The notes under the pieces were generated by a model. That model ran no database searches and was not told the DNA's origin. It was given only the letters and a program-made list of their open reading frames with translations. The position numbers were made by a program, and so were the translations under genes. Below are positions 5,866 to 9,204 of a stretch of DNA of 64,000 bases, piece after piece. Every line of letters begins with the position of its first letter. The first letter of the stretch is position 1. Origin of the DNA: Candidatus Nanohaloarchaea archaeon (GTDB lineage: Archaea > Nanohalarchaeota > Nanosalinia > Nanosalinales > Nanosalinaceae). Location: the NCBI GenBank assembly GCA_042218075.1, contig JBDGRK010000003.1:32001-96000 (forward strand). The letters run 5' to 3'.

Positions 5866-6372
5866 CTACTCAAAGCTCAGGCTGTACTCTTCCTCGGTTA
5901 TCTCCGCGATTATATTCTCAAATTCTTCGACGGAGAGGTTGATCTTCCCCTCGTACTCCTCGTCGACGACAATCTTCTTGCTCTGTCCCTCCGGCGAAAA
6001 GACGGTGTTAATGGATTCAACTTCTGCAGGACTCAGGAGACCCTTGATCGTGTCTATGTCGTCCTCGGCTTTTTCCACTACGCGTATCGATTTCCCTATC
6101 CTGTCGGCAACTTCCTTCACAATATCGCCGCTTCTTCCCACTACTTTTGCGCCGTCTCCCTCGGCCGTCACGATCACGATCACGTTCTCGGCCTCGAAAA
6201 CTTTAAGGATTTCAGAGTCCTTCAGCGAGGCGTATTCCGAGCTGAGATCGTGTAGGATCCTTGAGACCTCTATATCTGTCTCCGTTATCTCTCCGTCCTC
6301 GAGCTTCTCCTCGCACATGCTGCATAGCTCGTCCTCGCTCTTGACGCATACGTTGCAGATTGGAGTCTTCAT
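5866..6372 (-). CDS. NusA-like KH-domain protein with N-terminal CxxC/CxxC zinc motif
   Basis: PICNVC..LCSMC; VVGRSGDIVK..GKSIRVVE KH motif. Confidence 0.8.
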   Translation of the reverse strand: MKTPICNVCVKSEDELCSMCEEKLEDGEITETDIEVSRILHDLSSEYASLKDSEILKVFEAENVIVIVTAEGDGAKVVGRSGDIVKEVADRIGKSIRVVEKAEDDIDTIKGLLSPAEVESINTVFSPEGQSKKIVVDEEYEGKINLSVEEFENIIAEITEEEYSLSFE

Positions 6373-7262: not shown

Positions 7263-8330
7263 TCAGTTCTCGATTACCTCGATTCCCAGGTCGTTGACGT
7301 CTCCGCTGACTTCCGTTTCGTGTTGCTCTTCCACGTCTCCGAGGACGTATGGTGACTCCACGCCTGTCACGATTGAGATCACCTGGAGCTTTCCTTCAAG
7401 CTCATCCTTGACTCTCGCGCCCCAGATCACCTGGGCCTTGTTGTCGAGGTGTCTCTTGACTTTCTGGCCCACCTCGTTGATCTCGTTCAGGGTCAGGTCC
7501 TGTCCTCCAGCGATGTGGATTAGAGCTCCATTCGCTCCTTCGAACTCCACGTCGAGCAGAGGATTGCTCAGCGCCTCGTGGATTGCTTCTTCTCCCTTGT
7601 TGTTGGTGTCGCTCTCTCCGTATCCCACTACAGCTACACCTCCTTCGTTCATGATGGTCTGGACGTCTGCGTAGTCGAGGTTGACGAGTGAAGGTTTTGA
7701 GATCGTTTCAGTCACGCCCTTGATCATCGTTGTAATCAGTTCGTCCGCGACTCCAAAGGCCTGGTCAAGAGGCATGTCTCCAGCAATATCCAGTAAGCGA
7801 TCATTCTCAATCACGATCGCGGTGTCTACGTGCTGTCGCAGCCTGTAGAGGCCATCCTCTGCCTTGCTCATCCTTGCACCTTCAATCTCGAATGGCATCG
7901 TGACTGTTCCTATAACTATGCAGTCCTCCTTCTTCGCGATCTCAGCCAGTACCGGAGCCGCACCAGTTCCTGTTCCTCCGCCCATTCCGGCTGTGAGGAA
8001 AACCATGTCAGCGTCCTTGAAGAGCGATCTGAGTTCAGCCCTGTTCTCTTCGGCCGATCTTGCTCCTTTCTCAGGTTCTCCTCCTGCTCCGAGACCTTTT
8101 GTGAGGTCTCTTCCCACGAGAATTTTTCGATCAGCAGAGCTCATCTCCAGGTGCTGCTTGTCGGTGTTGATCGCGACAGTGTCAGCTCCGTCGACCTCCT
8201 TGTTGTGGATTCGGGTAACCTGGTTGTTTCCAGCTCCTCCTATTCCTACAACAAGGATTCTAGCATCTTTTACATCATCGAGGTTTTCGACTTCGTTTTC
8301 GGATTCGGTATTATCGATTAGGGATTCCAT
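7263..8330 (-). CDS. ftsZ: Cell division protein FtsZ
   Basis: GGAGNN, NTD, GLGAGG, GGGTGTG, NLDYADV motifs. Confidence 0.98.
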   Translation of the reverse strand: MESLIDNTESENEVENLDDVKDARILVVGIGGAGNNQVTRIHNKEVDGADTVAINTDKQHLEMSSADRKILVGRDLTKGLGAGGEPEKGARSAEENRAELRSLFKDADMVFLTAGMGGGTGTGAAPVLAEIAKKEDCIVIGTVTMPFEIEGARMSKAEDGLYRLRQHVDTAIVIENDRLLDIAGDMPLDQAFGVADELITTMIKGVTETISKPSLVNLDYADVQTIMNEGGVAVVGYGESDTNNKGEEAIHEALSNPLLDVEFEGANGALIHIAGGQDLTLNEINEVGQKVKRHLDNKAQVIWGARVKDELEGKLQVISIVTGVESPYVLGDVEEQHETEVSGDVNDLGIEVIEN

Positions 8331-8396
8331 AGTATGATCACGCGATAGTTATGCCTAACCTTTTTAAAGCGGCATAGCTAACTCTACGATAGAACC

Positions 8397-8520
8397 CAAA
8401 GCCCAATTTGATACGATACATTCCCCGGATTCAACGCCCAAGTCGAATCCGATAGTCAAACAAACTCGCGCCCAAACGAGTTTGAGTCAACATGTCAGGT
8501 TCGTGCGCCCAAACACGAAC
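8397..8520 (-). repeat. Array of four stem-loops with identical UUGGGC loop upstream of ftsZ (leader or sRNA)
   Basis: GCCCAA on + at 8401, 8436, 8470, 8507, each in its own inverted repeat; stem mismatches are G-U pairs on the minus strand. Confidence 0.75.
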
Positions 8521-8554
8521 ATGTAAACTTGTAACCTATAATTTTCTAACCCTG

Positions 8555-8563
8555 TTTATAAAA
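8555..8563 (-). promoter_or_regulatory. TATA box upstream of the hairpin array and ftsZ
   Basis: TTTTATAAA on minus strand, about 35 nt upstream of the first hairpin. Confidence 0.55.
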
Positions 8564-8671
8564 GTTTGCTAAAACTCGGCTCTCTCGCTGTTCATACCTA
8601 ATGAACACTGAACAGTTCACGCCAGTTCATAACTGTTTATCAAAAACGTTTTTTCCCTAAAGATCGTTTCA

Positions 8672-9148
8672 CTATAATGTAAAAAAACTGGCCGGTTGAT
8701 AGTTCTCTGCAAAATGCTCTATTCCCTCTTCTGCTCCTGGATCAGGCGATAGTAGCCGGTATGCTTCCAGGTCATCGGGCATAAATACCAGAATGTAATC
8801 GTTATCGTCATTCCATTCCAGATGCAAAGCTTCTCTCGGTAGGTTTCCTCCAACTGCCTCACGCTTCAGCTGATCGAAACTTTCATATTCCCCAGAAAAA
8901 CTGAAATCACATCTTTCCAGGTTCTCCACAGCATCACCTACTATACAGGAAAAGGCTTCCTGTCTCTTCAATAAAGCAGTATATTCATCGCCGTATACCC
9001 GACTATCAATAGAAGCCTCTTCCAGAAGGTCATTTACTTTCCTGGGTTTGGCGACTGAGACTTCTGCACCAGATCCACTCCTATCCAAGTCAGGATTTAC
9101 CCAACCATTAACTTTTTCTCCGTAGTTATCATGGATAGTTTTAGACAT
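8672..9148 (-). CDS. Hypothetical protein (orphan)
   Basis: Acidic ORF, probable start MSKTIH. Confidence 0.55.
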   Translation of the reverse strand: MSKTIHDNYGEKVNGWVNPDLDRSGSGAEVSVAKPRKVNDLLEEASIDSRVYGDEYTALLKRQEAFSCIVGDAVENLERCDFSFSGEYESFDQLKREAVGGNLPREALHLEWNDDNDYILVFMPDDLEAYRLLSPDPGAEEGIEHFAENYQPASFFTL

Positions 9149-9204
9149 TCGCAACACAAAACATTTCCTGAAGCTTCATATATCTGATCTTTCCTATCCA
9201 AGAT

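Follow-up and report, generated by a model that had tools for sequence, protein, structure and literature searches.

In bacteria, CsrB/RsmZ RNAs and the leaders bound by CsrA present several hairpins with the same G-rich loop motif, A(N)GGA, ANTAR target RNAs consist of two tandem hairpins whose hexaloops carry A at position 1 and G at position 4, and the TRAP-trp leader holds many copies of a short motif that is read by one factor. To our knowledge, the timing of FtsZ-based division in archaea is largely obscure, and the part that is known is transcriptional. The archaeal L7Ae 5' leader is autoregulatory, a structured element bound by protein controlling expression, as outlined in PMC6298567; archaeal division genes are described as being under the control of transcription factors such as aCcr1 (PMC9976878); and a conserved 266-nt intergenic small RNA has been reported in a Nanohaloarchaeon, the main text of the report giving no locus for it (PMC7002113). 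Here, we describe a hairpin array upstream of ftsZ in Nanohaloarchaeota, a genuine regulatory array that extends across the order, serves this gene only and appears to be undescribed. Its best reading, which we favour with moderate confidence, is a leader RNA of ~200 nt that would bind one sequence-specific reader at several sites.

The window, that is, the whole 64,000-nt stretch of DNA analysed, contains on its minus strand an ftsZ gene (7263-8330) encoding an FtsZ1-like protein of 355 aa, with matches to Pfam Tubulin and FtsZ_C and to TIGR00065 (399.5 bits), and whose best solved relative is 'FtsZ homolog 1' (E 2.7e-100). The gap of 341 nt that separates this gene from a 161-aa ORF on the same strand (8672-9157) holds four TTGGGC-centred elements. 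Their minus-strand sequence reads exactly as listed in a first-pass annotation of this DNA, and the loop starts at 8512, 8475, 8441 and 8406 reproduce the spacings of 37, 34 and 35 nt given there. Hairpin 1 (8499-8520) reads GTTCGTGT-TTGGGC-GCACGAAC, that is, GTTCGTG(T)-TTGGGC-(G)CACGAAC, and hairpin 2 (8461-8484) reads CAAACTCGT-TTGGGC-GCGAGTTTG, that is, CAAACTCG(T)-TTGGGC-(G)CGAGTTTG. Hairpin 3 (8425-8452) has the core CGGATTCGAC-TTGGGC-GTTGAATCCG at 8451-8426, flanked by (T)...(G), with 11 pairs and one internal G.T. The annotation had counted four hairpins, of which these three stand as solid structures of 8-11 pairs. The fourth TTGGGC copy (8397-8410, CAAA-TTGGGC-TTTG), beside which a further GGG is found at 8397-8395, forms only a weak stem of 4-5 bp, and in relatives its position is occupied by a hairpin (ATTCAAG-TTGGG-CTTGAAT) or, often, by unstructured tandem TTGGGC copies.

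On both strands of the window, TTGGGC occurs 12 times, against 24.95 +/- 4.65 expected from shuffles, and four of the 12 copies lie in the array, on one strand and within 112 nt. Genome-wide (1,103,323 nt), six of 124 TTGGGC copies are flanked by stems of at least 4 bp, four of them in the array, and the three copies with stems of at least 6 bp are all in the array, permuted six-letter control loops giving 0-4. Thus, the window-wide shuffle count and the genome-wide stem counts exclude chance as an explanation for the TTGGGC hairpin array. Genome-wide avoidance of TTGGGC was considered and rejected (124 copies observed vs 136 expected under an order-4 model), the general scarcity of the motif being due to lower-order composition. 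A dispersed repeat or mobile element was likewise discarded, since the genome has no other such hairpins and the covariance model described below finds one match per genome. Compared with shuffles, the window fold gave z-scores of -1.88 on the sense strand and -4.52 on the antisense strand, values that speak against a preference for the sense strand. No ORF of at least 40 aa was found in 8331-8671, and a coding role for an 11-codon ATG frame over hairpin 1 was rejected because the frame is not conserved in relatives.

As in CsrB/RsmZ, several hairpins on what would be one RNA carry the same short G-rich loop motif, which implies a multivalent reader, a likeness drawn feature by feature. As on CsrB-type RNAs, the motifs are many: 77 of 79 unique leaders carry three to seven GGGC or GGGA motifs, nearly all of them on the ftsZ sense strand. 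These leaders are the genome, genome-contig and metagenome loci left after duplicate removal, two non-nanohaloarchaeal loci (L138 and L139, FtsZ identity 44%) having been dropped. Unlike CsrB/RsmZ, the array uses UUGGGC or GGGA instead of A(N)GGA, with GGA present only within GGGA (16 leaders), and it is one locus per genome, fixed before one gene, in an archaeal host. The analogy with CsrB/RsmZ drawn in the first-pass annotation therefore holds for the many motifs per RNA and stops short of the protein, as no CsrA gene (PF02599) was found in the window's own genome (G000, 92% complete), by a search whose control recovered PF02599 in three of 14 reference genomes. Tandem hairpins, six-base loops and a G at loop position 4 are shared with ANTAR targets, from which the array differs in that loop position 1 is U or G and not A, and in having at least three hairpins, linkers of 10-20 nt and no overlapping terminator; the genome gave no match to ANTAR (PF03861), and neither did the 14 genomes of the control search. 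Like the TRAP-trp leader, the array presents many copies of a short motif in a putative leader for which one reader is proposed, but its motifs lie mostly in hairpin loops ~35 nt apart and no attenuator terminator is visible.

Among the archaeal systems, the L7Ae leader is outlined in PMC6298567 as a single k-turn in the mRNA of the binder itself, whereas the array would be a repeated loop motif on ftsZ with a putative binder. A dedicated region before a division gene recalls control of the aCcr1 type, and a cluster of RTGAACDG boxes at 8585-8640 may be such a region; the TTGGGC elements, with their variable and covarying arms, differ from the conserved DNA boxes described for that system (PMC9976878). 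The 266-nt small RNA, as presented in the main text of PMC7002113, may be the same element as the ftsZ array. A search of Rfam 15 with positions 7800-9200 on both strands, at E up to 10, returned only snoU61 (14.8 bits, gathering threshold 55), inside ftsZ and on the other strand, in line with the earlier statement that no named RNA family matches the array. In the literature on UUGGGC/TTGGGC motifs and on the nanohaloarchaeal ftsZ promoter, leader or hairpins, supplements being outside the scope of the search, no description of the array was found.

The array is conserved across the order, upstream of orthologous ftsZ. The motif counts in the 79 leaders bear out the conservation of the loops at orthologous loci, on which the first-pass reading depended. 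At least two sense-strand TTGGGC copies precede ftsZ in 27 of 30 family genomes, with a single antisense copy in all 30 together; for 20 further genomes of the family or order, tblastn parsed 16 loci, 13 of which have at least two sense copies, and antisense copies numbered zero. The four loci left unparsed all match R1, a covariance model of the three hairpins, L031 with 82.7 bits and L046, L039 and L049 weakly (24.4, 24.2 and 15.1 bits). At E 0.01 or better, R1 has a match in 36 of the order's 70 genomes, and only in G064 is there more than one (37 matches). By family, matches were obtained in 31 of 49 genomes of f1 plus the window's own genome, one of 10 of f3, three of eight of f4, and neither of the single genomes of f2 and f5. 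The coordinates of ftsZ are known for 31 of the 37 matches, and all 31 lie directly upstream of ftsZ, a count that leaves out six matches in five genomes. Genomes without a match show mostly variant architectures when inspected by eye.

Stems differ between hairpins, as had been claimed, and the loop core is near-fixed; the loop is not invariant. Among 148 hairpins, the loops were TTGGGC (40), T-TTGGGC-G (33), a GGGC tetraloop closed by TT/AA (20), CGGGCA (10) and GTGGGA (5), UUUGGCGA loops, with only GG, occur in one family, and the single genome of family f5 has TTTGGCGA loops in place of TTGGGC. Stems range from 5 to 13 bp and loops from 4 to 8 nt, and arm sequences differ both between hairpins and between families. 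Applying one strand-symmetric rule throughout, we find 246 of the 411 GGG sites of the 79 leaders in hairpin loops, vs 394 of 10,239 genome-wide. In relatives such as L002-L004, L015 and L027, the first linker, between hairpins 1 and 2, contains a semi-conserved GACTGAT(C)/CAGATC stretch.

Strong covariation was found in the stems. When 42 leaders were aligned to R1, 92.1% of cells paired vs 73.3% in shuffles, 20 of 21 pairs changed on both sides, and the covariation score was 0.517 vs 0.207, a value reached by none of 500 shuffles, with slid controls at 0.083 or less; this alignment was fitted to R1 and hence favours the structure, and the results from plain MAFFT agree with it in direction. 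Indeed, RNAalifold recovers the three hairpins on plain MAFFT alignments, with compensatory changes in 14 of the 29 pairs of one alignment (18 sequences) and in 12 of the 21 pairs of another (21 sequences). In hairpin 1, orthologous stems covary, as in TTCGTC/GACGAA, TTCACGC/GCGTGAA and GTTCATG/CATGAAC; in hairpin 2, an inner ACTCG/CGAGT is conserved and the outer pairs covary; and in hairpin 3, each of the nine helix pairs has changed on both sides among the 42 aligned sequences.

These patterns bear on an alternative in which the region is a DNA operator array, TTGGGC/TTGGGA being duplex sites for a transcription factor that controls a proximal promoter (TTTAAAAAGG, described below) or blocks the distal one, and the dyads being incidental or aiding DNA recognition. 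We regard this alternative as unlikely. Arms that covary without sequence conservation, on stems and loops of varying length, find no explanation in a dimeric DNA binder, and the centre is asymmetric. No conserved half-site at fixed spacing was found, and the changes on both sides in 20 of 21 pairs point the same way: with arms free in sequence and length and a fixed centre, the elements are the reverse of a protein-bound DNA palindrome.

The TATA box that the first-pass annotation placed just before the first hairpin proved to be part of a conserved promoter. This distal core promoter (8555-8567, minus strand) comprises a BRE-like AAA, a C and then TTTTATAAA as TATA at 8563-8555, with AA at 8544-8543 as the -11/-10 element. 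TTTATAAA is invariant in 33 family sequences, with an A-rich stretch before it, and in nearly all regions, other families included, the BRE/TATA lies 46-63 nt before the first loop GGG. In each of 46 orthologous regions, a promoter matrix built from the leaderless-looking genes of the window's own genome (consensus AAA.tTTttAAa, AA at -11/-10) has its best hit at the distal site (scores 7.8-12.2). In the window, the site scores 10.5, the 99.9th percentile of random positions being 8.1, and the predicted +1 is 8533, 13 nt before hairpin 1. Positions 8567-8533 thus have the make-up of an archaeal core promoter as found at the leaderless genes of the same genome: an A-rich BRE, a TATA ~30 nt upstream of the predicted start and, at -11/-10, AA. 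The predicted ftsZ leader, of ~203 nt (8331-8533, minus strand), follows from this start and is consistent with the oligo-T depletion described below and the lack of ORFs of at least 40 aa in 8331-8671. Its length would be unusual here, most genes looking leaderless as had been stated, with A/T-rich boxes peaking genome-wide 26-35 nt before start codons.

Two further conserved elements lie between the array and ftsZ on the minus strand. A TTCTA-TCG-TAGAG box (8382-8394; family consensus TTCTA-AGG-TAGAA) is highly conserved, with its arms kept and its centre varying, and is paired by RNAalifold; a small hairpin and a palindromic site for a protein are both conceivable. The proximal A-box TTTAAAAAGG (8368-8359), within an inverted repeat TAGCTATGCC/GGCATAACTA (8346-8380), shows no variation within the family and can still be recognised throughout the order. 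Located 38 nt upstream of the ftsZ ATG, it has a predicted +1 at 8338 and scores 6.3, like ordinary promoters of the genome (selected genes 4.9 +/- 3.6). The CTATRCC/GGYATAG inverted repeat around it has one covarying R-Y pair in the family (AU 9, GC 5, GU 2). An order-wide hairpin around the A-box was rejected, the flanking dyad averaging 5.25 pairs vs 4.85 in shuffles, which is not above chance. The A-box region may act as a second promoter, of lower strength, or belong to the leader; taken with the TTCTA-NNN-TAGAA dyad, the A-box repeat could represent either a second promoter plus operator or a further pair of leader hairpins. An operator array would find support here, in an A-box that is invariant and placed where promoters sit in this genome: if ftsZ were transcribed mainly from it, the array would lie upstream of the ftsZ promoter, and in several relatives a spacing of 8-14 nt separates the tandem, unstructured TTGGGC copies closest to the A-box.

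Closer to the gene, GTGAT(C)- or GGAGG-like stretches are found 8-14 nt before the ftsZ ATG (GTGATC in the window, 8331-8343; GGAGA or GAGGT in other families), and GTGAT(C)/GGAGG-like motifs peak genome-wide at -15 to -6. These stretches suggest a leadered mRNA as the template for ftsZ translation, in contrast to most genes of this genome. With ~70 nt between the last TTGGGC and the ftsZ start codon, a simple blocking of the ribosome site is not apparent.

With two promoter-like elements in tandem, the distal promoter might instead produce an independent small RNA of ~140-190 nt that ends before the A-box and acts as a sponge or decoy for the reader, ftsZ being transcribed from the A-box. The array is self-contained and in this respect analogous to CsrB-type sponges, and T runs of five or more are archaeal termination signals. 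Neither a conserved oligo-T nor any other terminator lies between the array and ftsZ, and such T runs are depleted throughout: from the distal promoter to the ATG, the sense strand of the 79 leaders has six, vs 22.6 +/- 4.3 expected, two of them (L035 and L137) occurring in one shared sequence context and probably being the TATA of those loci, parsed wrongly. By comparison, 39 such runs are found in the 95 nt that precede the TATA, where there is a third as much sequence. This depletion favours read-through into ftsZ over a terminated small RNA, and one array per genome, always before ftsZ, fits action in cis better than a free sponge. A precedent for an independent transcript exists in the conserved 266-nt intergenic small RNA reported in the main text on a Nanohaloarchaeon (PMC7002113); all the same, we judge this reading improbable.

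Evidence on the strand is mixed for base pairs. The three non-Watson-Crick stem positions of the window array are T.G, T.G and G.T on the minus strand, so the earlier argument from G-U pairs holds within this array. It is not general: when the 158 unique hairpins of the 79 leaders were scanned for internal mismatches flanked on either side by two Watson-Crick pairs, 23 were G.T, 20 A.C and 21 other (an earlier count had given 15 G.T vs 12 A.C). Equally common G.T and A.C mismatches are what a strand-symmetric constraint gives, which counts in favour of a DNA operator. Alignments gave G-U vs A-C ratios of 44:4 (RNAalifold) and 83:27 (model-fitted alignment), although both methods reward G-U and the sequences are related; similarly, in each of 18 leaders the more stable fold is that of the sense strand, but this strand is G+U-rich.

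Composition separates the strands more clearly. The 79 leaders contain 364 GGGC and GGGA vs four GCCC and TCCC. On the sense strand, CCC occurs 17 times vs 119.5 +/- 12.5 expected, an observed/expected ratio of 0.14 vs 0.78 genome-wide, and GGG is enriched (425 vs 314 expected). In an RNA, CCC would be expected to pair with the GGG loops, so its avoidance fits an RNA, whereas a DNA site gives no reason for it. Depletion of CCC and oligo-T on one strand has no DNA-binding rationale, and under an operator array the much stronger, invariant distal promoter, at its fixed distance to hairpin 1, would have no product. In favour of an operator, archaeal division genes are described as being controlled by transcription factors (PMC9976878). 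Taken together, the CCC and oligo-T depletion fits a read-through RNA with exposed GGG loops.

The last base of the loop motif points to the nature of the reader. It is the same in all copies of nearly every leader: 61 of 79 are all-GGGC and 16 all-GGGA, L064 being mixed and L050 lacking both motifs. Mapped on an FtsZ tree (FastTree, 62 full-length proteins, the 17 leaders without a full gene being left out), the label has changed at least three times, a number forced by well-supported branches. Leader L119, for instance, reads GGGA in all six copies and is 73% identical to its closest relatives, L016 and L108, which read GGGC. Gene conversion restricted to the loops would be unlikely, because the copies have different stems. 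The simplest account is that a single trans-acting, sequence-specific reader changed its specificity and every site followed, and the concerted switch thereby backs the multivalent, sequence-specific reader proposed in the first-pass annotation. A concerted switch would be expected of a DNA-binding reader too.

It is less easily reconciled with a structure that acts without any specific reader, through protection of the 5' end, polymerase pausing or a K+-stabilised G-quadruplex tuning ftsZ in the high-salt cytoplasm. The first hairpin lies ~13 nt from the predicted 5' end, and each leader has three to seven sense-strand GGG tracts and almost no CCC, as such a structure might have it. The bases on either side of GGG are conserved, with UU preceding it and C or A following, and at the C/A position all copies change at once; neither stability nor a quadruplex demands this. 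The family with UUUGGCGA loops has only GG. The concerted GGGC/GGGA switch thus argues against readings based on GGG tracts only, and we give this one a slim chance.

As to the identity of the reader, a 168-aa protein is encoded downstream of ftsZ (5866-6372, minus strand), with an N-terminal CxxC...CxxC, a NusA-like KH domain (PF13184) and a match to PRK06418 (E 5.9e-40, below the curated cut-off). The gene for this NusA-like KH/zinc-ribbon protein lies on the same strand downstream of ftsZ in most genomes of the window's family. It was rejected as the reader because other families with the array have the gene on other contigs or 5 kb away; when its covariation with GGGC/GGGA was examined, no signal emerged, the only discriminating column being I/L, and only one GGGA clade had sequences. 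An RNA partner complementary to the loops was also discarded, the 30 GCCCAA sites outside long ORFs revealing no multi-site partner; GCCCAA in 23S rRNA faces CTTGGG in what appears to be its own helix, and other sites include tRNA flanks. Viral decoy copies were dismissed as well, the single hairpin-2 motif match in viral contigs being a chance match in GC-rich, coding-like sequence, with no array and no ftsZ.

Elsewhere, positions 9114-9150 of contig C22 (L154 ~1515-1551) hold TTGGGC, TTGGGC, TTTGGGT and TTGGAAC at a spacing of 10-11 nt. These repeats follow an HTH gene and a membrane-protein gene; a 41-aa CxxC ORF has its TATA-like box ~60 nt further on. They were rejected as a second array, since the HTH gene was found in one of five relatives searched and the repeats are absent there. 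A TTGGGC cluster at 62344-62571 of contig C10 was rejected too, as it maps to a tRNA gene, at its ends and in its flanks.

Upstream of the distal promoter, the RTGAACDG cluster (8585-8640, minus strand) consists of ATAAACAGT, ATGAACTGG, GTGAACTGTTCAG, TGTTCAT and ATGAACAGC, that is, three to five boxes, some of them arranged as GAACTGTTC dyads, and similar boxes are aligned in family relatives. It is the only cluster of at least three such boxes in the genome and probably represents the operator for a dedicated transcription factor. The 161-aa ORF (8672-9157) lies between gatC and the ftsZ control region and has no Pfam or NCBIfam match. By tblastn it is present in one of 153 loci, the window's own, and 97 other loci have divergent gatC as the upstream neighbour. 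Interposed before the ftsZ region, with boxes, TATA and array all having stayed with ftsZ, it appears to be either a lineage-specific insertion or a spurious ORF.

Returning to the leader RNA with one sequence-specific reader, the sequence data would fit the following course of events. Transcription would start near 8533, ~13 nt upstream of hairpin 1, at a very strong promoter with regulation of its own, and the RNA would most likely run on into ftsZ as a leader of ~200 nt. This leader would display three UUGGGC-loop hairpins and one to three further UUGGGC copies, which together would form a multivalent docking platform for one trans-acting reader, probably a protein, and the degree to which the reader occupies it would determine how much ftsZ is made, by way of mRNA stability, translation or elongation. 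In this scheme, we infer the RNA nature of the array, the read-through into ftsZ, the binding of a protein and the direction of the effect.

Nanohaloarchaea are tiny, host-dependent cells with genomes of ~1 Mb, and in such genomes ~340 nt of dedicated control DNA has been kept before ftsZ, with unique boxes, an unusually strong promoter and the array. If the array is an RNA platform, its loop motif, copy number and natural swaps would offer a handle for finding the reader, a route to testing whether division is coupled to host contact or growth state, and a clean new structured-RNA family for Rfam. More broadly, and tentatively, Nanohaloarchaeota may control their main division gene post-transcriptionally, through a leader of ~200 nt with UUGGGC loops and a lineage-specific reader, either a protein or a loop-pairing RNA, whose specificity would have flipped at least three times; we regard this proposal as quite possible without leaning towards it. 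If true, this would be the first RNA-based switch on archaeal cell division, operating in host-dependent DPANN cells, and a natural GGGC/GGGA specificity-swap experiment would already be present in the sequence data.
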